Notes: generated by a model from the sequence alone, not told the origin. 64,000 nt of DNA from an uncultured Candidatus Rokubacteria bacterium (GCA_963771355.1 CAVYTA010000007.1:544001-608000); one strand, 5' to 3'; numbered from the stretch's first letter, positions 37,408 to 50,156 are shown. Program-made: numbers and translations.

Positions 37408-38466
37408 ATGACGATTCCCACCGAGCCGATTGGCAGCATCCCGAGACCGCCGGAGCTCATCGAGGCCTTCACCCGAAAGGGCCCCGAGGATCCGAGCCTG
37501 GACCCTCTCTACGAGGCCGCCGTGCGGGACACCGTGCGGCGGTTCGAGGCAACGGGGTCGCCCGTCGTCACCGATGGCGAGCAGCGGAAGTACCACAACT
37601 TCTGGACCTATCCCGTGTACGGGATGCCGAACACGATGCCCGACGGCTTCCAGATCCCCTTCGCGGCGGGACATGTCCGGCGCATGCCGCGGCTGACGCA
37701 CGGCCCCTTTCGATTTCGACGCTCCGCGGACAGCTTCCTCGAAGTGGCGCAGCGCTACGCGACGGTTCCGGTGAAGCAGGCGATCATCTCGACGTCCGCG
37801 CTGAGCCTCATGTATCCGGCCGACGGGATCCCGGGCTATTCGCGCGAGCAGTTCATCGACGACCTCCTTCGCGAGCACGAGCTCGAGATCCGCCGGTGCC
37901 TGGAGCGGGGCGCGCATTCGGTGCAGATCGACTTCACCGAAGGCCGCCTCTCGATGAAGGTCGACCCCTCCGGGCACCTCCTCAACAGCTTCATCGACTT
38001 GAACAACCTCGCGCTGTCGCGCTTCTCCGCGGAGGAGCGCCGGCGGATCGGGGTGCACACCTGCCCGGGCGGCGATCGGGATTCCACCCACAGTGCCGAC
38101 GTCGCCTACGAAGAGCTGCTGCCCAGCCTGTTCGAGCTGAAGGCCGGCCGCTTCTATGTCGCGCTGGCGGGCGAGGGGGACCAGGTGCGCGCGCTGAAGA
38201 TCATCCGCGATCATCTGAAAGCGGACCAGCGCGTGTTCGTCGGCGTCATCGCGCCGATACACCCGCGGATCGAGACGCCCGAAGAGGTCCGTGACCGGGT
38301 CCTGGAGGCGGCACAGTACATCCCCCTGGCGCAGCTCGGCACCACCGACGATTGCGGGTTCTCACCCTTCAGCGACGACACGTCGACGTCCCGTGACACG
38401 GCGTTCGCCAAGATCCGGGCGCGGGTGGTCGGTACCGCCCTCGCCGCGAAGGCGCTCGGGCTGTGA
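37408..38466 (+). CDS. Single-barrel cobalamin-independent methionine synthase-like (MetE C-terminal-type) protein, atypical
   Basis: GSIPRP, TDGEQRK, VQID, HTC, ETPEEV, DDCGF. Confidence 0.85.
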   Translation: MTIPTEPIGSIPRPPELIEAFTRKGPEDPSLDPLYEAAVRDTVRRFEATGSPVVTDGEQRKYHNFWTYPVYGMPNTMPDGFQIPFAAGHVRRMPRLTHGPFRFRRSADSFLEVAQRYATVPVKQAIISTSALSLMYPADGIPGYSREQFIDDLLREHELEIRRCLERGAHSVQIDFTEGRLSMKVDPSGHLLNSFIDLNNLALSRFSAEERRRIGVHTCPGGDRDSTHSADVAYEELLPSLFELKAGRFYVALAGEGDQVRALKIIRDHLKADQRVFVGVIAPIHPRIETPEEVRDRVLEAAQYIPLAQLGTTDDCGFSPFSDDTSTSRDTAFAKIRARVVGTALAAKALGL

Positions 38467-40221
38467 TGGTCGAGCACGACGACGAGGATCGGCTCCTGCG
38501 GGCGGTGACGATCCAGAATGCCAATGCCATCCTGGTGGCCCGGCGGCGCGCCGAGCAGGAGCTCCTGCAGGCGAAGGAAGCGCTGGAGCTCAAGACCGGC
38601 GAGCTCGCCCATTCGCTGGCGATGCTGCGCGCGACGCTCGAATCCACCACCGACGGCATCCTGGTGACCGACGAGCGCGGGCACGTCACCGACTTCAACG
38701 AGCGGTACCTCGCGATGTGGCGGCTGCCCCGCGAGCTGGTGGTGTCGGGAGCGCACCGGGAGATCATGGAGGCGATCGCCGCGCAGTTCACCGACGCGCG
38801 GCCGTTCGTCGACCGGGTGGAGGAGATCTACGCGGCCGCGAGCGAGGAGACCTTCGACGTCCTGGAGCTCGCGGACGGCCGGGTGTTCGAGCGATACTCG
38901 CGCGTCCAGATCGTCGACGCCCGCAACGTCGGGCGCGTGTGGAGCTTCCGCGACATCACCCAGAACCGACGGACGGAAGAGGCCTTGCGCGAGGAGACCC
39001 GGGAGCGCCGGCATCTGCTCGAGAGCGAGCGGGCGGCACGGAGCGAGGCGGAGCGCGGAAGCGCGATGAAGGACGAGTTCCTGGCCACGCTCTCCCACGA
39101 GCTGCGCACGCCCCTCAATGCCATCCTCGGGTGGTCGCAGATGCTCCGGCTCTCGACCATGAGCGAGAGCGATCGGCAGCGGGGACTCGAGATCATCGAG
39201 CGCAATACGCGCGTCCAGGCGCAGCTGATCGAGGACCTGCTCGACATGAGCCGGATCACGTCCGGCAAGCTGCGCCTCGATATCCAGGCGATGGCGCCGG
39301 CGGCGGTGGTGGAGGCGGCGCTCGACACGGTGCGCGCGGCGGCCGACGCCAAGGGGATCCGCCTGACCTCGGTGCTGGACCCGGCGGCGGGACCGGTGGT
39401 GGGAGACCCGAATCGCCTCCAGCAGGTGGTCTGGAACCTGCTCTCCAACGCCATCAAGTTCACGGGAAAGAATGGCCGGGTGCAGGTGCGTCTCCAGCGC
39501 GTGAACTCCCACATCGAGATCAGTGTCACCGACACCGGGATCGGCATCGCGCCCGAGTTCTTGCCGTACGTGTTCGAGCGGTTCCGGCAGGCGGACGCCT
39601 CCAGCACCCGCCCGGCGGGCGGACTCGGTCTGGGCCTCGCCATCGTGAAGCAGCTCGTCGAGCTCCATGGGGGCTCGGTGCGGGCGGCGAGCCCGGGACC
39701 GGACCGCGGGGCGACATTCACCGTGGAGCTTCCGCTCCTGGCCGTTCAACGCGACCGCCCCGAGGCGCGCCGGCATCCCACCGCCCAGAGCATCGCCCCT
39801 CTGGAGTTCACGCGGCTGGACCTGGCCGGCATCAAGGTGCTGGTGGTCGACGATGAGGTCGATGCGCGTGACCTGATCGCGCGGGTACTCGCCGAGTGCC
39901 GCGCGGAGGTGTTCACCGCCGGCACCGCCGAGGAGACGCTGGCCGCCATCGAACGAGTCCGGCCGCATGTGCTCGTGAGCGACATCGGCATGCCCACCGT
40001 CGACGGGTACCAGCTGCTCCGGCAGGTCCGGGCGCTCGGCCTCGCGCGGGGCGGCGGCGTGCCGGCGATCGCGCTCACCGCCTTCGCCCGCTCGGAGGAC
40101 CGGACCCGCGCGCTGCACGCGGGGTTCGTCGTCCACGTCTCGAAGCCGGTGGAGCCCGCGGAGCTGATGGCCGCGGTGGCGAGCGTGGTGGGGCGGACGG
40201 GCGAGCCCGTGCCGCGCGTGA
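38466..40221 (+). CDS. Cytoplasmic hybrid histidine kinase (PAS-HisKA-HATPase-REC); real stop probably obscured by an indel
   Basis: SHELRTPL, NAIKF, DTGIGI, GGLGLG, SDIGMP; ORF track runs to 40796 antisense to the next gene, while TGA 40219 is in the +1 frame. Confidence 0.88.
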
Positions 40222-40232
40222 GGGTGGACCCC

Positions 40233-41811
40233 CTAGGACTGCCTCAGCGCCGCGCCGATATCGTCGGGGCTCACCGGCTTGGTCAGATGGAGATCGAAGC
40301 CCGCCTCTTGCGCCCGGACGCGATCGTAGGGCTGGCCGTAGCCGGTCACCGCGACCAGCCGGATCACGGCGTTTCCCATCGCCTGCCGCACCCGCCGGGC
40401 GACTTCGTAGCCATCGAGCCCGGGAAGCCCCACGTCGATGAGGGCGACGTCCGGTTGCACCTGGAGGATCAGGGCGACGCCCGCCACCCCGTCCGCGGCC
40501 GTCCGGACCTCGTGGCCCTGCAGCGTGAGGAGGATCTGGAGCGCCTCGCGCGCATCCTCGTGATCCTCGACCACGACGATGCGTCGGGGAAGGGAGGGGG
40601 CCGGCGCGAGCTCGGGCCGAGGGGCGGCCGCCTCCGCGGCGAGGGGGAGACGCACGACGAACTCGCTGCCCTGTCCCGAGACCCGCGCTATGGGCCGCCA
40701 CGCGGCCCCCGTGCTGCTCGACGAGGCCCTTCACGACGGCGAGGCCGAGGCCGAGGCCGCCGCGCGCGCGTTGGAGGGAGACGTCGGTTTGCGTGAACGG
40801 CTCGAAGATGGACTCGAGCATCTCGGCGGCGAGACCGATCCCCCGATCTTCCACGCTGAGGACGGCCTCGCCGTTCTCCCGGCGCGCGACCACGCGGATC
40901 GGCTCGCCGGGGGGCGAGTACTTGACCGCGTTGTCGATGAGGTTCCCCGCGATCTGCTCGAGGCGCACCGGATCGCCTTCCACCACCACCGGGCGCCCAT
41001 CGGTGACGAGCGAGACGCGATGCGCGTGCGACACGGCGGCGTGGCGGGACTCGACACACTGGCGGACGACCTCGCGGAGATCGACGGGCTCCCGCCGCAG
41101 GGCGATCTTGCCCGACATGATCCGGGACACGTCGAGCAGATCGTCGATGAGCCGGGAGAGGTGCTGCGCCTGGCGGCCGATGATGGTCCGCGACCGGCTC
41201 TCGGCCTCCGCGCGGGCCTCGAATCGGTCGAGCACGGCGGCGCCGTTGACGATGGCGGCCAGGGGATTGCGGAGCTCGTGCCCCAGCATGGCCAGGAAAT
41301 TGTCCTTGGCCCGGCTCTCGCGCTCGGCGGCGGCGCGCGCGACGCGGAGCTCCGCCTCGACGCGCTCGCGGACGGCCAGGTAGTCGCGGGTCTCGTATTG
41401 CCGGCGCCGCGCGCGGAGCGCGGTCCGGATCGCCGCCACCAGGGTGATGGCGCGGACCGGCCGCTCGAGGACGGTGACGTTCCCGGACTCGGCCAGCGTC
41501 TGGAGCATCCGGTAGTTCGTGCCGCTCACGTGCCCGCTCGTGGTGAGGATCACCAGGGGCAGGTCCGACCAGGGAGCCTGTTGCTCGCAGGCCTCGAGGA
41601 GGAGCTGGGTCGACGCCCGGGCGAGCGCCTCCTCGGTCAGCAGCACCGCGCCCGCGCCCTCCCCGATGGCCTCGCAGAGCGCGTCGATCCCCGCGCAGAC
41701 TGCCGTGGCCATGCGGGCTCTGGACAGGACCTCGCACGCGATCTCGCCGTCCCGACCCACCGGCGCCAGGATGAGGACCCGTTCCTCCGCGGCGCTACTT
41801 GACGGGGCCAT
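40233..41811 (-). CDS. Hybrid histidine kinase (pseudo-REC-HisKA-HATPase-REC), frame break at ~40676
   Basis: GHELRNPL, NAVKY, DRGIG, GGLGLG; C-terminal REC in ORF 40233..40655; removing one base gives GLGQGSEFVVRLP. Confidence 0.88.
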
Positions 41812-43294
41812 CCGGGGCCGACCGATTCTCGGTCTTCAAGATCGTCGGAACGCCCGACAGCACTCCCTGGAATTGCGTCAGGGGCGGGCCGACCCGGACA
41901 CCGGGGCCGAAGTGGATCTCCCGGATCGTGTTCTCGTGCCGGCCCGTCCGGTTCTTCATGACCGAGACGGCGCGCCGGACCTCGCCGGTGACCTCGAAAT
42001 ATCGGAAGAGCAGGACCGTATCGGCCAGATACGTGACGTCCACCGGGGTGGACATGCTGCTGCCGATGAGCCCGTGCTGGGCCATGAGCATCAGGGTCAC
42101 CACGCCGCGCTGGTTCAGATAGGTGAGCATCTCGTGGAGCTGCACGATGAGCGAGCGCTCCTCCGGCATGGAGGCGAGCAGCCCGTTCAGGCTGTCGATG
42201 ACCACCAGCCGCGCATCATCCCGCTCCACGCCCCGGCGCACGCCCTGGATGAACTCGCCGGGGGAGAGCTGGGCGGCGTCCACCTGCTGGAGGGTGATGC
42301 GACCCCCTTCCACGTGGGACCGCAAGGGGAGGCCGAGCGCATCCGAGCGAAGGAGAGAGGTGCCGTCCTGCTCGTCGAAGAGGTAGACCATCGCGTGGTG
42401 CCCGCGGCCGGCGGCGCTCGTCGCGTACTGGGTCGCCACGATGGACTTCCCGGCCCCGGCCGGGCCCATGAGGAGGACGCTCGTCCCCCGGACCAGGCCT
42501 CCGCCCAGCAGGACGTCGAGCTCGGGCACGCCGCTCTCGACGACTCCACCGTCGCGGAGCTGGCGATGCTCCGTCGCGACCATGCGGGGGAATACCCGCA
42601 TGCCGCCGGTGACGATCCGGAAATCGTGGTACCCACCGCGAAAATCGAGGCCGCGGAGCTTGGCGATGCGGAGCCGTCGCCGCTCGGCGCCGAACTCGGT
42701 GGCGAGCTGCTCGAGCCGGATCACCCCATGCGAGATGCTGTGGAGCTGGAGATCACTGCGGTCCGCCGTCTGGTCGTCGAGGAGCAGCACGGTGCACTGC
42801 CGGCCGCCGAAGAAATGCTTCAAGGCCAGGATCTGCCGCCGGTAGCGCAGCGGATCGCGTGCGAGCAGCCGAATCTCGGACAGGGAGTCGAACACGACGC
42901 GGGTGGGGTTGGTCCGCTCCACCTCCCGGAATACCGCGGCGGTGGTCTCGCCGAGCTCCACCTCGGAGGGATGGAGGATGGTGTACTCGTCGTCCGCGCG
43001 TGGAGATTCGGCCGGGGCCAGCTCATACAAAGCCACGTCGTCGAGCGACCAGCCGTGCGACTGGGCCACCGCGCGAAGCTCGTCGGCGCTCTCGGAGAGC
43101 GTGACGTACAGGCCGGGCTCGCCGAGGCGGGCGCCCTCGAGCAGGAACTGCAGCGCGAGCGTCGTTTTCCCGGTCCCGGGCTCTCCTTCGACGAGATAGA
43201 GCCGGTTCCCCGGCAATCCGCCCCGCAGGATGTCGTCCAGGCCCTCGATGCCGGTGGAGACGGGGGAAGGCTGGACCGGGGGATTGTTGGGCAT
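41795..43294 (-). CDS. KaiC-like double-domain RecA-fold ATPase
   Basis: STGIEGLD, GEPGTGKT, FDS, KLRG; second domain SGVPELD, GPAGAGKS, IDS, KNR. Confidence 0.92.
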   Translation of the reverse strand: MPNNPPVQPSPVSTGIEGLDDILRGGLPGNRLYLVEGEPGTGKTTLALQFLLEGARLGEPGLYVTLSESADELRAVAQSHGWSLDDVALYELAPAESPRADDEYTILHPSEVELGETTAAVFREVERTNPTRVVFDSLSEIRLLARDPLRYRRQILALKHFFGGRQCTVLLLDDQTADRSDLQLHSISHGVIRLEQLATEFGAERRRLRIAKLRGLDFRGGYHDFRIVTGGMRVFPRMVATEHRQLRDGGVVESGVPELDVLLGGGLVRGTSVLLMGPAGAGKSIVATQYATSAAGRGHHAMVYLFDEQDGTSLLRSDALGLPLRSHVEGGRITLQQVDAAQLSPGEFIQGVRRGVERDDARLVVIDSLNGLLASMPEERSLIVQLHEMLTYLNQRGVVTLMLMAQHGLIGSSMSTPVDVTYLADTVLLFRYFEVTGEVRRAVSVMKNRTGRHENTIREIHFGPGVRVGPPLTQFQGVLSGVPTILKTENRSAPDGPVK

Positions 43295-43321: not shown

Positions 43322-45059
43322 CTAGAGCCGCTTGAGGGTCTTCTCATGCGCCTGCCAGATCGGCCGCGGCAGGCGGTCGCCGAAGGTCTTGTAGAACTCC
43401 CCCAGCTCGTCGAGCGCGCGCACCCAGTCTTCCTTGCCCACCCGCAGCGCCTCCGCCAGCCGGTCCGGCGGCATGTCCAGTCCGGACAGGTCGAGCCCGT
43501 CCGGAGTGGGCACATTGCCAATGGCGGTCTCGGTGGCCTGGCCCCCACCCTGGATGCGCTCGAGGATCCACTTCAGCACGCGGACGTTCTCGCTGTAGCC
43601 GGGCCAGAGGTACTTGCCGTCGGCGTCCCGACGGAACCAGTTCACGCGGAAGATCTTGGGCGGGTTCTTGAGCCGGGGCCCCATGGCGAGCCAGTGCTGC
43701 AGGTAGTCGGCCATGTTGTAGCCGCAGAAGGGGAGCATGGCCATGGGATCGCGCCGCACCACGCCCACCTCTCCGGTGATGGCGGCGGTCGTCTCGGTGC
43801 CCATGGCCGAGCCGAGGAAGACGCCGTGGTCCCAGTCGAAGGCCTCGAAGACCAGCGGCACCACCCGCCCGCGCCGCGAGCCGAAGATGAAGCCGGAGAT
43901 AGGCACGCCCTCGGGATCCTCCCAGTTGGGCGCGATGGACGGGCACTGCGACGCGAGCACGGTGAAGCGGGAATTGGGATGCGCGGCGGGTCCGCCCCCG
44001 GGCTGCCAGGCCTTGCCCTGCCAGTCGAGCGTTCCCGCCGGCGCCGGCTTGTCCATGCCCTCCCACCAGGGCTCGCGATCCGGCGTCATCGCGACATTGG
44101 TGAAGATGGTGTTGGAGCGCACCATGGTCATCCCGTTGGGATTGGTCTTGGGCGAGGTGTTCGGCGCCACCCCGAAGAAGCCCCGCTCGGGATTGACGGC
44201 GCGGAGCTGGCCCTGCTTGTCCACGTGGATCCAGGCGATGTCGTCGCCCACCGTCCAGCAGCGGTAGCCGGGCAGCCGCGAGATCACCATGGCGAGATTG
44301 GTCTTGCCGGACGCGCTCGGCATGGCGCCGGCGAGGTAGGTGACCTTGCCGGTCGGGTCCTCCACGCCGAGGATCAGCATGTGCTCGGCGAGCCAGCCCT
44401 CCTGGTGCGCCTGCGCGGAGGCGATGCGGAGGGCGTGGCACTTCTTGCCCAGCAGCGCGTTGCCGCCGTAGCCGGAGCCCACGCTCCAGATGAGCTTTTC
44501 CTCGGGGAAGTGGAGGATGAAGCGGCGGTCCGGGGAGAGATCGCCGAGGGAGTGAAGTCCCGGGACGAAGTCGTCGTCGGCGCGCATGTGCTCGAGGGCC
44601 ACCGCTCCCACCCGCGTCATGATGTGCATGCTCGCGGTGGCGTAGGCGCTGTCCGACACCATCAGGCCCACGCGGCTCATCGACGAGCCCGCGGGTCCCA
44701 TGAGGTAGGGGATGACGTACATGGTCCGCCCGCGCATGCTCCCGCGGAAGAGACCGCCCACGCGCCCCTTCGCCTCCGTCGGGGTCCATCCAGTTATTGG
44801 TCGGACCCGCGTCGTCCTTTTCACGCGAGCAGATGAACGTGAGCTGCTCGGTGCGGGCGACGTCGGTGGGATGGCTGCGGTGGAGATAACAGTTCGGGTA
44901 GGTCTTCTCGTTGAGCGGTACCAGCGTGCCGTCGGCGAGCATCTGCCCCACCAGCCGGTCGTACTCCGCCTTGGAGCCATCGCACCAGACGACGTCGGCG
45001 GGTTTGGTGAGGGCGGCTACCTCGTCCACCCACTTCTCGGCGACAGTCGTCATGGCCAT
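43322..45059 (-). CDS. pckG: Phosphoenolpyruvate carboxykinase (GTP), frame break at ~44783
   Basis: WCDGS, DVARTE, GPTNNW, GSGYGGNALLGKKC, PSASGKTN, VGDDIAW, NPERGFFGVAP, HPNSRF. Confidence 0.93.
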
Positions 45060-45161: not shown

Positions 45162-46529
<1,368 letters not shown>

Positions 46530-46543
46530 GGGCGATGTGCGAG

Positions 46544-46559
46544 TGCAACCGCCATGCCC
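46544..46559 (-). promoter_or_regulatory. Sigma-54 promoter of NtrC-family gene
   Basis: Minus strand GGGCATGGCGGTTGCA (GG-N10-GC). Confidence 0.65.
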
Positions 46560-46622
46560 GGTCCCGCGCAGCCATTTGGCGCGGGTTTAGCGCAACTTAC
46601 AGCGAGAGGAAGGAAAGTCCCA

Positions 46623-46649
46623 GAACCTATTTACCGTGTAAATTTCGAC
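46623..46649. promoter_or_regulatory. Putative enhancer (UAS) box pair
   Basis: gaacctatttacc-g-tgtaaatttcgac. Confidence 0.55.
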
Positions 46650-46796
46650 CCAAAACGCCGCCACGATGGCTCGCGGCGTGTCGTCGGGTGGCTCGTCCGC
46701 CGAAGGAGTCGAGCACGGCGAAGAGCGCGCGCGCTCCTCGCCGTGCTCCGCATGCACCCACCGACCGCGGCCGGCGGGCGCTGATTGTCCCGAGTC

Positions 46797-47045
46797 CTAG
46801 CGCCGACGTGGCGGCGTGGAGGGGCGACTCTCGTCGGCGACGTCCCAGTCCGTCTCCTCGAGGAAGTCATCGAGCTCCTGCTCCGCCTGGTCCTTGGCGT
46901 AGCCGTAGCGCTCCTGGAGGAGGCCGGCCAGCTTCTCGAATCGGCCGGCGGACTTGTCCAGCTCGTCGTCGGTGAGCTCGCCCCACTTTTCCTTCACGGT
47001 GCCCTTGACCTTCTTCCACTTGCCTTCAAGGATGTCACGGTTCAT
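46797..47045 (-). CDS. csbD: CsbD-family general stress protein
   Basis: MNRDILEGKWKKVKGTVKEKWGELTDDEL...LQERYG; AAGGAGG RBS. Confidence 0.93.
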   Translation of the reverse strand: MNRDILEGKWKKVKGTVKEKWGELTDDELDKSAGRFEKLAGLLQERYGYAKDQAEQELDDFLEETDWDVADESRPSTPPRRR

Positions 47046-47071
47046 AGCGCCCTCCTTGCTTGGGGAACGGG

Positions 47072-47087
47072 AGCAATATCCATGCAA
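47072..47087 (-). promoter_or_regulatory. Near-consensus sigma-54 promoter of csbD
   Basis: Minus strand TTGCATGGATATTGCT (one mismatch in the -24 GG). Confidence 0.45.
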
Positions 47088-47172
47088 GCCACTTCTTGCC
47101 GCGTAAGTGCGCGCCCGCTCGCGGATCGTGCGGACCGCGCCGGAGAAAGGCCGTCACATCGCGGGAGGGCGG

Positions 47173-47216
47173 GGGAGTCCCTACCGGGTAAAACGCCGTG
47201 ATTCTGTAAAACGCCG
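47173..47216. promoter_or_regulatory. Putative enhancer (UAS) box pair plus direct repeat
   Basis: gggagtccctacc-g-ggtaaaacgccgt; GTAAAACGCCG at 47188 and 47206. Confidence 0.55.
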
Positions 47217-47248
47217 GGCGTCCATGAACGGTCGTCATCATGGCGGGA

Positions 47249-47264
47249 CGGTATTCAACTTGCA
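47249..47264 (+). promoter_or_regulatory. Sigma-54 promoter
   Basis: CGGTATTCAACTTGCA. Confidence 0.6.
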
Positions 47265-47291
47265 CCATGGCGGAGGCGGGAGGACCAACAC

Positions 47292-47513
47292 ATGAAAGGG
47301 ATCACCATCGTCGGGGTGCTGCTCATCGTCCTGGGGGTCATCGCGCTCGGCTACGAGGGCATCACCTACACCACGCGCGAGAAGGTCCTCGACATCGGGC
47401 CGCTGAAGGCCAGCGTGGACAAGAAGAAGACCATCCCGCTCTCGCCGGCCCTGGGCGCGCTGGCGCTGGTCGGGGGGATCGTGCTGGTGGTGGTGGGCGC
47501 GCGGCGCGGGTAA
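47292..47513 (+). CDS. Small 2-TM membrane protein (DUF3185-like)
   Basis: GGAGG RBS; TM-YTTREKVLDIGPL...KTIPL-TM. Confidence 0.8.
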   Translation: MKGITIVGVLLIVLGVIALGYEGITYTTREKVLDIGPLKASVDKKKTIPLSPALGALALVGGIVLVVVGARRG

Positions 47514-47525
47514 CTGCCGGTGCGC

Positions 47526-50156
47526 TCAGACCGGCCGGCCGGCGGCCGGAGCGCTGCCGGCGAGAAGCTGGACGAGCAGGGCGATCAGGGTGGCGGTGTT
47601 CACCGGCTTCGGCACGTGCAGGTCATAGCCGGCGTCGAGGATGCGCCGCCGGTCGTCCTCGCTCGCGTAGGCCGTCAAGGCCACGGCGCGGATGCGCCCG
47701 CCGCGCGTCGATTCGAGACGGCGCATGCGCTCGATGAGGCTGATGCCGTCCTCGCCCGGCATCCCGATGTCGGACACGAGCACGGCCGGCCAGCGCCGCG
47801 CCGCCTCCCCCATCGCCTCCGCCACCGAGGCGGCCGTGCTCACGTGGGCGCCCAGGCGGGCGAGGCTCACCGAGACCGCCTCGCGCGCGTCGGCATCGTC
47901 GTCGACCACGAGCACCGCGAGGTCCCGTAGCACCTCCCCCGCTGGTGCGGCGAGCTCCAGGCCCGCCGGACCCCGCCAGGGCCGCGTGCTCGCGGTGAGG
48001 GGCAGCATGACCGTGAAGGTGGTCCCCCGGGCCTCGCCGGGGCTTTCCGCCCGGATGGTGCCGTGGTGCAGCTCCACCAGCTGGCGCGCGATGGCCAGCC
48101 CCAGGCCGAGGCCGCCCTGCGGCCGGGTGGTGCTGCTGTCGCCCTGACGGAAGCGGTCGAAGATGTGTGGGAGGAGCGAGGGCGCGATGCCCTGACCCGA
48201 ATCGTGGACTTCCACCTCGGCGTCGGTGCCGCGCCGGCGGAGCCGGACCTCGATGCGCCCGCCCACCGGGGTGAACTTGAGCGCATTGGACAGGAGGTTC
48301 CACATCACCTGCTGCAGGCGGGTGGCGTCGCCGAGCACCGGCCCGACGTCCGGGTCGAGGGTCCTGACGACCGTGAGGTGCTTGGCCTCCGCGGTGGCCC
48401 GCACCGTTTCCACCGCGGACTCGATCACCGCCTGCAGCTCGATGGGGCCCAGCTCCAGGCGGAGCTTGCCCGACGCGATTCGCGAGATGTCGAGCAGGTC
48501 GTCGATGAGCTGCGCCTGGAGCGCGGCGTTGCGGTCGATGGTGTCGATCCCTCGCGCCAGCGTGTCCGGGTCCAATGGGCGCTGGCGGAGCACGCCGGCC
48601 CAGAGACGGAGCGCGTTGAGGGGCGTGCGCAGCTCATGGGACAAGGTGGCGAGGAACTCGTCCTTGGCCCGGTTGGCGCGCTCCGCGTCGCCGCGCGCAC
48701 GCTGCTCGCGCTCCAGTAGCTCCGAGCGCTCCGCCTCCGCCCGCTTCCGATCGGTGACGTCGAGGGCGACCAGGATGGCGAAGGGGGGCCGGCCGGTCTC
48801 CCGGATGGACGAGACCGATACGCTCGCCCACACCGACGTCCCGTCGGGACGGCGCAGCCGTACCTCGCGGGTCTGGTTGTGCCCGTGCTCCAGGGGGTCG
48901 GCGAGCAGGCGCCGCCCGTCCGCGGCGTCGTCCGGATGGATGAACTGCTCGAGTCGCGAGCCCAGCACCTGCTCGCGGGGGCGGCCCACCATGTCGCAGA
49001 GCCGGTCGTTGGCGAGGGTGAAGCCGCCCTCGAGGTCGAGCTGGGCGATGCCGGCGATGCTGCGGTCGATGATCGCGCTGAGGCGCTCCTCGCGGTCGCG
49101 CAGCGTTCGCTCTCCCTCCGCGCGCTGGAAGCCGGCGGTGAGGAGCGCGTCGGCCATGGAGTGGATCTCCTTCACCGGCGAGGGCGGATGGGTGGTCATC
49201 CGCCCCGAGCACAGGGCGTAGGCGGAGGCGGACAGCGCTTGCAGCGGACGCGTGATGCGCCGCCCCAGGATGGTGGCGGCTAGCCCGCTCAGGAGCAGGA
49301 AGCCCACGCCGCCCATCACCACCGCACCCAGCGAGCGCCAGAAGGGATACTCCACCACCGCGGTGGGAACGGCCACCACCACCGTCCAGCCCGCCGCCCC
49401 CGTGCGCGCGTTGGCGAAGTACACGGCGCGCCCCGTCGCGTCGGAGCCCTGGTGCCAGCCGGGCGCCTTCATGTCGCCCCCCGCGGTGACGGCCAGCGCC
49501 GAGCGCCGGCCGACCGCCTCGGCGTGTCCCGGATGCTGGGCGAGGATGCTGCCGTGCGCGTCGACCACCGAGGCCGACCATTCATCGGGATGCTTCTGCT
49601 CGGCAAGAATGTCCCGGAGCGAGCCCGGGGTGACGCTGGCGCTCAGGACGTAGAGGAGGGACACGTCGCGGAATACCGGCAACCGCACCATGTAGCTGCG
49701 ATCATCGGATCGCGGGCCGGCCATGAGTCCGCTCACCGCGGGGAAGCCGGACGACACCGCCCGCGTGAAGCTCTCGCGCTCCGTCACGGCCTCGGGCGAA
49801 TCCCCATAGGGAACGAGCGTGTTGAGGACGCGGCGGCCGTCGGGCTCGGCGAGCGTCACCGCCAGCCAGCCGCGCTGGGTCTCGAGGCGCCGGCGGGCAT
49901 CCGCATAGAAGAGCGAGAAGTCGCGGCGCTCGAGATTGCGCGAGGTGGCGAGGATCTTGAGGGTGCCGACGGTGTTGTTGAGCTCACGATCCACGGCGGC
50001 GGCGAGCCCACGCGCGGTGTCATGCAGCTCGCGCTCGACGGCGCCCCGGCGCTCGTCCGAGATGCTCAGCGCCAGCCAGCCGCTGAAGACCACGACGGGA
50101 AGGACGGCGGCGATCACCAGGATGAAGAGGTGGGCCCGGACGGAGAACCGCTTCAC
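47526..50156 (-). CDS. Membrane hybrid histidine kinase (Cache-like-PAS-HisKA-HATPase-REC)
   Basis: Two TMs, PAS IHPDD, SHELRTPL, NALKF, DSGQGI, SDIGMP. Confidence 0.92.
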   Translation of the reverse strand: MKRFSVRAHLFILVIAAVLPVVVFSGWLALSISDERRGAVERELHDTARGLAAAVDRELNNTVGTLKILATSRNLERRDFSLFYADARRRLETQRGWLAVTLAEPDGRRVLNTLVPYGDSPEAVTERESFTRAVSSGFPAVSGLMAGPRSDDRSYMVRLPVFRDVSLLYVLSASVTPGSLRDILAEQKHPDEWSASVVDAHGSILAQHPGHAEAVGRRSALAVTAGGDMKAPGWHQGSDATGRAVYFANARTGAAGWTVVVAVPTAVVEYPFWRSLGAVVMGGVGFLLLSGLAATILGRRITRPLQALSASAYALCSGRMTTHPPSPVKEIHSMADALLTAGFQRAEGERTLRDREERLSAIIDRSIAGIAQLDLEGGFTLANDRLCDMVGRPREQVLGSRLEQFIHPDDAADGRRLLADPLEHGHNQTREVRLRRPDGTSVWASVSVSSIRETGRPPFAILVALDVTDRKRAEAERSELLEREQRARGDAERANRAKDEFLATLSHELRTPLNALRLWAGVLRQRPLDPDTLARGIDTIDRNAALQAQLIDDLLDISRIASGKLRLELGPIELQAVIESAVETVRATAEAKHLTVVRTLDPDVGPVLGDATRLQQVMWNLLSNALKFTPVGGRIEVRLRRRGTDAEVEVHDSGQGIAPSLLPHIFDRFRQGDSSTTRPQGGLGLGLAIARQLVELHHGTIRAESPGEARGTTFTVMLPLTASTRPWRGPAGLELAAPAGEVLRDLAVLVVDDDADAREAVSVSLARLGAHVSTAASVAEAMGEAARRWPAVLVSDIGMPGEDGISLIERMRRLESTRGGRIRAVALTAYASEDDRRRILDAGYDLHVPKPVNTATLIALLVQLLAGSAPAAGRPV

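Follow-up and report, generated by a model that had tools for sequence, protein, structure and literature searches.

A methionine-synthase-like barrel co-encoded with helix-bearing soluble histidine kinases: a candidate sensor subunit

A single-barrel protein of the methionine synthase type and a soluble hybrid histidine kinase are encoded by overlapping genes in the 64,000-nucleotide stretch from an uncultured Candidatus Rokubacteria bacterium that we analyzed (the window), and across bacterial genomes the coupling of such barrels to kinases that begin with one particular short helix is far beyond chance. The pairing is apparently real, conserved and undescribed, and we regard a physical partnership between barrel and kinase, in some form, as very probable. 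Concerning its purpose we lean, with modest confidence, toward the reading of the barrel as a cytoplasmic sensor subunit that can detach, and which would bind the N-terminal helix of the kinase and switch its activity according to the occupancy of its pocket. A sequence-only reading of the locus had proposed a partner or modifier of the kinase rather than a methionine synthase; the partner half of this proposal gained support from the coupling, the helix and a complex model, while the option of a catalytic modifier was weakened by a lineage that has lost the zinc cysteines and kept its partner.

The barrel gene (37408..38466, plus strand, as are all features of the pair) encodes 352 amino acids that form a single catalytic-type TIM barrel resembling the MetE core without the folate-binding half (PF01717, 23.2 bits). 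Its stop codon (TGA, 38464-38466) shares one base with the start codon of the kinase (ATG, 38466-38468), and this TGATG overlap at 38464..38468, which had been pointed out from the sequence, likely couples the translation of the two genes; an overlap of 1 or 4 bases recurs in 44 of 62 related pairs. The kinase starts with a conserved helix (residues 7-29, 38484..38552), the helical segment that had been quoted as lying ahead of the PAS domain, and continues with a coiled-coil-type linker (38553..38636) and domains identified by domain matches, namely PAS_7 (residues 58-172, 38637..38981), HisKA (201-267, with His211) and HATPase_c (313-424), together spanning 39066..39737, and a receiver domain (REC, 458-571, with Asp506, 39837..40178). 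No hydrophobic stretch exceeded 1.33 in a 19-residue Kyte-Doolittle window, in agreement with the earlier statement that the kinase has no transmembrane segment, and among 62 relatives a window above 1.8 occurred in a single protein, far from its N-terminus. The protein therefore combines the HisKA histidine, HATPase_c domain, receiver aspartate and lack of a membrane helix of a soluble hybrid histidine kinase.

In the assembly the kinase reading frame stays open as far as 40796 (776 aa), leaving the TGA at 40219-40221 one base out of frame. One base is absent at 40211/40212 in all four DNA runs of near-identical strains (one X13 contig shows a different arrangement at this place), which brings the TGA into frame after 584 codons, and in ten close relatives the kinase ends no more than 14 residues past the last receiver helix. 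The segment 40211..40221 thus probably holds a spurious extra base followed by the real kinase end, so that the end at 40221 taken in the sequence-only reading is the probable one although the assembled frame reads through it. On the minus strand there is a convergent module (40233-41811 and 41795-43294) in which a KaiC-like double ATPase accompanies a HisKA-HATPase-receiver kinase. This kinase is split by a comparable additional base at 40675, missing from four of four DNA runs and from one RNA run, and both extra bases are therefore probably assembly errors. Next to it, a GTP-type PEP carboxykinase extends over two frames (43322-45059, minus strand), probably owing to another assembly indel. 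The region 45162-50156 contains a sigma-54 NtrC-type regulator, a short ORF (46797-47087) and a dCache-PAS hybrid kinase, the regulator and kinase placing the pair in a signaling cluster. The short ORF resembles CsbD stress proteins but had no Pfam match.

The AlphaFold2 model of the barrel (pLDDT 89, loop 222-230 unresolved) matched MetE catalytic barrels, the best match being MesD (3rpd, TM 0.75, 19% identity), and the protein thus has the MetE catalytic barrel fold. In MetE the zinc ligands are H641, C643, E665 and C726, its substrate residues are S433, E484 and D599, and the homocysteine residues are numbered 8/59/174 in MesA (PMC7857596). The corresponding zinc positions in the barrel are His217-x-Cys219 (38056..38064) and Cys316 in DDCGF (38353..38355), both of which could be read in the 352-aa ORF as the sequence-only reading had stated, while S10, E58 and D175 correspond to the homocysteine residues by motif and MesA numbering. 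H217, C219, C316, S10, E58 and D175 did not vary across the 89 aligned proteins, whereas the zinc cysteines are gone in eight further coupled copies. QIDFTE (residues 173-178) was likewise found as described, and FYVAL (249-253) indeed stands where the family has its glutamate, since a phmmer alignment to 1ypx placed Ala252 (38161..38163) on the Glu of FFLE; in the AlphaFold2 model this residue closes strand 248-251. The Glu/Asp that serves as fourth zinc ligand (E. coli E665) is therefore absent, and E256 or H228 could substitute for it. MesB has Asp at the equivalent position (PMC7005905).

These features bear on the alternative that the barrel is an ordinary core methionine synthase of the MesA-D type, merely co-transcribed with the kinase and making no contact with it. 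Its fold and homocysteine-pocket residues match those of core synthases (PMC7857596), and databases label it as a methionine synthase. However, alanine takes the place of the Glu/Asp ligand, where glycine is not expected to permit zinc binding according to PMC7857596, and the four NCBIfam methionine synthase models that matched, among which there is no dedicated MesB or MesC model, gave 36-51 bits against cut-offs of 313-576. Membership among the two-barrel folate-dependent MetE proteins (about 750 aa) does not fit either, as the protein has 352 aa with PF01717 only, and no match to the N-terminal folate barrel PF08267 was found at the locus. Moreover, the genome holds a full MetH above cut-off and, besides it, eleven single-barrel PF01717 loci (G000, L107-L117), namely the window barrel and ten others, which means that the window barrel is not needed for methionine. 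A dedicated helix and copies without cysteines would also be left unexplained, and we consider this alternative very unlikely. Complementation of metE, which had been suggested as a check, would be of little informative value because MesB, a proven core synthase, fails to complement E. coli metE as well (PMC7857596). MesX (PF08908), the partner of MesD, had no match in the genome, and 14 control genomes were blank as well. Eleven single-barrel loci in one genome represent an unusual expansion, and the barrel family as a whole comprises at least 8000 clusters and an estimated 3500 or so stretches in GTDB, both clades described below taken together. One 1400-aa protein named as Rhizoctonia solani, a fungus (P0143), is 50% identical to the barrel over 65% of its length, and is either a fungal member or contamination.

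A quick IQ-TREE analysis gave a fully supported split between 72 rows and 17, and FastTree agreed (81 vs 20). The larger, kinase-coupled clade has Ala (69) or Ser (3) at residue 252 and a YHN insertion at 62-64, while the 17 rows of the sister clade have Gln (15) or Glu (2) and no insertion; in these alignments Ala/Ser252 and YHN62-64 mark the coupled clade. QIDFTE had been taken as the label of a subclade, and although the motif is present, it is not diagnostic, since Q[IVLMT]DFTE is common to both clades and the helix-less sister clade reads Q[ILMT]DFTE. Sister proteins, annotated as 'cobalamin-independent methionine synthase II family protein' and found for instance on Streptomyces plasmids and on Trichlorobacter pGLOV01, are 52-68% identical to the window protein and share its zinc and pocket residues, but differ in residue 252, in the insertion and in their varied neighbors. 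Plasmid-borne copies (L118:3794-4891, L119:5001-6065) adjoin cobO and a 2-oxoacid oxidoreductase gene in Trichlorobacter, or, in Streptomyces, a gene of the carboxymuconolactone decarboxylase family, which is also found at L100. No helix partner was found in 20 of 20 sister loci checked. Three related sister barrels (L095:3310-5745, L096:1966-4355, L099:2203-4592) directly precede a GAF-HisKA-HATPase kinase without the helix, with a TGATG overlap in two and a MEDS-domain gene upstream in L095, and possibly represent a second, independent kinase coupling.

The strength of the coupling became apparent from several samples, in which related genomes are not independent of one another. In GTDB 587 loci were confirmed, and the best 80 of them, which are skewed toward close relatives, comprised 70 loci of the YHN/Ala clade (3 at a contig edge) and 10 of the sister clade. 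Among the 67 assessable Ala-clade loci of these best 80, 64 had the helix directly downstream, beginning within a few codons of the barrel stop, two had a helix kinase just upstream, and one had a 3'-broken barrel; the 66 coupled loci span ten named phyla and three kinase classes, and the helix was absent beside all 10 sister-clade loci. Relatives in this best-80 set thus almost always adjoin such kinases (66 of 67), contrary to the rarity named in the sequence-only reading as counting against a partnership, and the suggested co-occurrence with the kinase N-terminus was likewise borne out. Whole-genome samples, which are free of the bias to close relatives, gave the same picture. In 251 genomes of the window's own phylum, all 14 barrel loci of at least 76% identity adjoin the helix (window included, one split), the 17 helix matches consist of 14 after a barrel and 3 after a barrel remnant, and nine sister-clade loci are without a helix (one cut by a contig end). 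In 351 genomes of the bacterial family to which locus L053 belongs, 28 of 33 strong helix matches follow a barrel and 5 do not, three weak matches having been set aside, while the 30 genomes with a barrel match comprise 28 coupled, one sister-type and one truncated case. In metagenomes the helix was present in 6 of 11 loci, always after a barrel, and the 5 loci without helix have no barrel. This is the conserved co-encoding with a soluble kinase expected of an accessory sensor.

The same data speak to the idea of a purely genetic link, in which the barrel gene and the 5' end of the kinase gene would travel together as a cassette, providing any kinase behind it with a promoter and translation start. 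The spread is patchy, with helix matches in 14 of 251 own-phylum and 36 of 351 L053-family genomes, kinase cores have been swapped behind the helix, and barrel remnants retain the barrel 3' end and the overlap. In two copies (L092:1499-1797 and L093:673-962; G142) the barrel gene has collapsed to a mini-ORF of about 50 codons that joins its first and last parts and still overlaps the helix-kinase start. In contrast, two Nitrosospira genomes (L040:2192-6059, L041:2533-6059) retain both genes in reversed order, with the helix kinase first and the barrel 340-720 bases downstream, and neither a mobility gene nor any other third gene was conserved among the neighbors of the pair. The helix, moreover, is conserved as protein rather than DNA (majority base 0.80/0.85/0.55 by codon position), and a complex model of the two proteins, described below, passes its controls, so that a cassette of this kind appears highly improbable.

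The helix itself matches no Pfam family, and nothing else in the partner kinases is constant. In 63 aligned rows R26 is invariant and E7, L11, A15, A19, E30, L33 and L40 are nearly so, with no conserved Cys, Met or His. Kinases of the HisKA, HisKA_3 and HWE_HK classes carry it, and their PAS/GAF sets differ (59 of 62 partners scanned). A profile search found 1761 proteins, and among the 120 listed the helix was N-terminal in 116 and the annotated output domains were kinase domains. R26 and the first PAS motif are 23, 30, 37 or 44 residues apart in 39 of the 42 proteins that could be measured (21 others have no such motif), and an in-frame deletion of 21 bases, equivalent to one linker heptad, was found at 38561-38581 in three of four runs of near-identical strains. 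Judged from these sequences, linker lengths that vary in seven-residue steps are what would be expected of a phased, signal-carrying coiled coil.

Folding the barrel together with kinase residues 1-50 and zinc gave a complex score of 0.63 (0.63, 0.57 and 0.65 in separate runs), whereas three controls scored 0.00. Contacts agreed by at least 85% between runs, and the partner had a pLDDT of at least 77. Of 157 solved complexes 116 reached the mark used, as did 2 of 215 mismatched pairs, a calibration that is only rough here because our own alignments and a ligand were used. The complex prediction, proposed in the sequence-only reading as a check, thus came out in favor of a partnership; the score expresses model confidence and lends support rather than proof, and a lone helix docks easily. 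In the model, helix residues 7-29 contact barrel residues 81-82, 133-154 and 182-204, most of the predicted docking surface (133-204) being encoded at 37804..38019, and the site lies on outer barrel helices and not on active-site residues. No similar complex was found among the phmmer or fold matches of the barrel. At the 26 interface positions the consensus of the coupled clade was kept in 52% of sister cells compared to 66% elsewhere (permutation p 0.006, without control for surface exposure), and the sister rows were not part of the folded alignment.

Whether a docked barrel acts as an enzyme can be weighed by comparing intact and degraded copies. According to this alternative the barrel would be catalytically active, with turnover itself as the signal, or would modify the kinase or make a ligand for its PAS/GAF domains by transferring a methyl or alkyl group to a zinc-activated thiol, while sitting on the helix much as HoxBC does on HoxJ. 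Such a role is in line with the complete or almost complete conservation of H217, C219, C316, S10, E58, D175, E256 and the DSTHS loop across the 72 coupled-clade proteins, whose mean pairwise identity reaches 75% across phyla, and the invariant E256 or H228, which could stand in for the absent glutamate, are both lost along with the cysteines. With 154 near-invariant columns, the intact clade keeps an active site of enzyme grade, which is as compatible with catalysis as with binding. However, eight coupled barrels of the L053 family, which form one lineage (L126-L133), lack C219 and C316 and have also lost E256, T177, H89 and the 221-229 loop, in all 29 of the 154 near-invariant positions, yet they keep 12 of 12 near-invariant interface residues, S10, E58, D175, H217 and A252 as well as the helix partner and a 4-base overlap. 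Their median pairwise dN/dS was 0.30 (0.18-0.41), while five intact betaproteobacterial copies, compared over greater distances, gave 0.15 (estimated by a simple Nei-Gojobori procedure on GC-rich DNA), and they are thus under purifying selection. Since the zinc cysteines have been lost while interface and coupling were kept, catalysis looks dispensable, and this lineage favors binding over turnover as the core role. In addition, the helix offers no conserved residue to modify, its predicted site lies away from the active-site residues, the varied PAS/GAF content leaves no shared receiver for a small molecule, and no third conserved gene could supply a methyl donor. We therefore regard an enzymatic role as unlikely. 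PF01717 no longer matches the two Cys-less barrels tested, which makes these genes invisible to domain annotation.

A further alternative, to which we give somewhat less credence still, is that the barrel binds the helix and senses nothing, serving as a constitutive scaffold, a folding aid or a stoichiometric inhibitor of the kinase. The Cys-less lineage has kept its interface residues after losing the zinc site, the gene overlap suggests a fixed stoichiometry, and the kinases have PAS/GAF domains of their own. But a pure scaffold would have no need of the pocket that the other 72 proteins keep nearly invariant, the linker is held in heptad phase, which suggests the passage of a signal, and there are kinases without a barrel. 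Five helix kinases (L120-L124) have no adjacent barrel, and no barrel match at E 1e-40 was found in their assemblies; together with the remnant-only copies they indicate that helix kinases persist without the barrel. The Cys-less lineage, with its single origin and relaxed dN/dS, may represent a stage of decay toward these five orphan kinases.

The preferred reading, that of a detachable sensor subunit, can be put into a sequence of steps. The gene overlap would provide near-equal amounts of barrel and kinase, and the helix face formed by V14, N18, A21, I22, A25 and R26 is predicted to lie in the groove of barrel segments 133-154 and 182-204. The barrel would bind an amino acid of the homocysteine or methionine type via S10, E58 and D175, and in most lineages the ligand sulfur might be held by a His-Cys-Cys zinc without the usual Glu. 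Ligand binding would order the 222-230 loop and alter the grip on the helix, and the heptad-phased coiled coil could relay this change to whichever PAS, GAF or kinase core follows. Against this reading it should be considered that D175 and S10 could owe their retention to structure, and that L095, L096 and L099 couple to a kinase without the helix, so that coupling does not require the helix and takes a form there for which this reading gives no account. More tentatively, and as a proposal that we would not yet call probable, the pair may exemplify a widespread plug-in module, in which a methionine synthase barrel serves as receptor for a sulfur amino acid or for the thiol/zinc state and controls any HisKA, HisKA_3 or HWE kinase that carries a docking helix of about 25 residues at its N-terminus, with a zinc-free pseudoenzyme receptor in one lineage.

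To our knowledge, most soluble kinases of soil bacteria have no known input, and the pair suggests a specific one, in the form of a barrel encoded on its own together with a short helix grafted onto three kinase classes. Because the family is annotated as methionine synthase, pathway predictions for these genes may be wrong. Intact, Cys-less and orphan states occur within one bacterial family and provide a natural series for the change from enzyme to receptor, cultured hosts of the pair, Massilia atriviolacea (L053) and Caenimonas soli (L073), are available, and both partners are soluble proteins. For the engineering of two-component systems, a transferable helix that places a kinase under the control of a partner could also be useful.

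Compared with known proteins, the barrel resembles MesA-MesD and the catalytic domain of MetE (PF01717; 3rpd, 1ypx) in its fold, in the His-x-Cys...Cys arrangement and in the homocysteine residues S10, E58 and D175, but it is only 19% identical, has Ala at the position of the fourth zinc ligand, reaches no NCBIfam cut-off and is nearly always paired with the kinase helix, in one lineage even without cysteines. Unlike for MesA-MesD, neither a corrinoid-protein gene nor a MesX gene is a conserved neighbor of window-type barrels. Among the openly accessible papers listed by a literature search, none was seen to describe a pairing between such a barrel and a kinase. A related principle is represented by the regulatory hydrogenase HoxBC of Ralstonia eutropha, a metalloenzyme paralogue that acts as a cytoplasmic sensor and interacts with the soluble histidine kinase HoxJ (PMC6978683). 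HoxBC has an unrelated fold and metal, whereas the window-type barrel pairs with three kinase classes via a short helix. Stand-alone H-NOX and NosP proteins are heme sensors encoded in the same operon as soluble kinases. They share with the pair the separate cytoplasmic sensor gene in an operon with a kinase lacking membrane helices, but the window pair has no heme domain and uses another docking element. By analogy with HoxBC-HoxJ and with H-NOX and NosP, the barrel and its helix kinase may be likened to a variant of the accessory-sensor kind.
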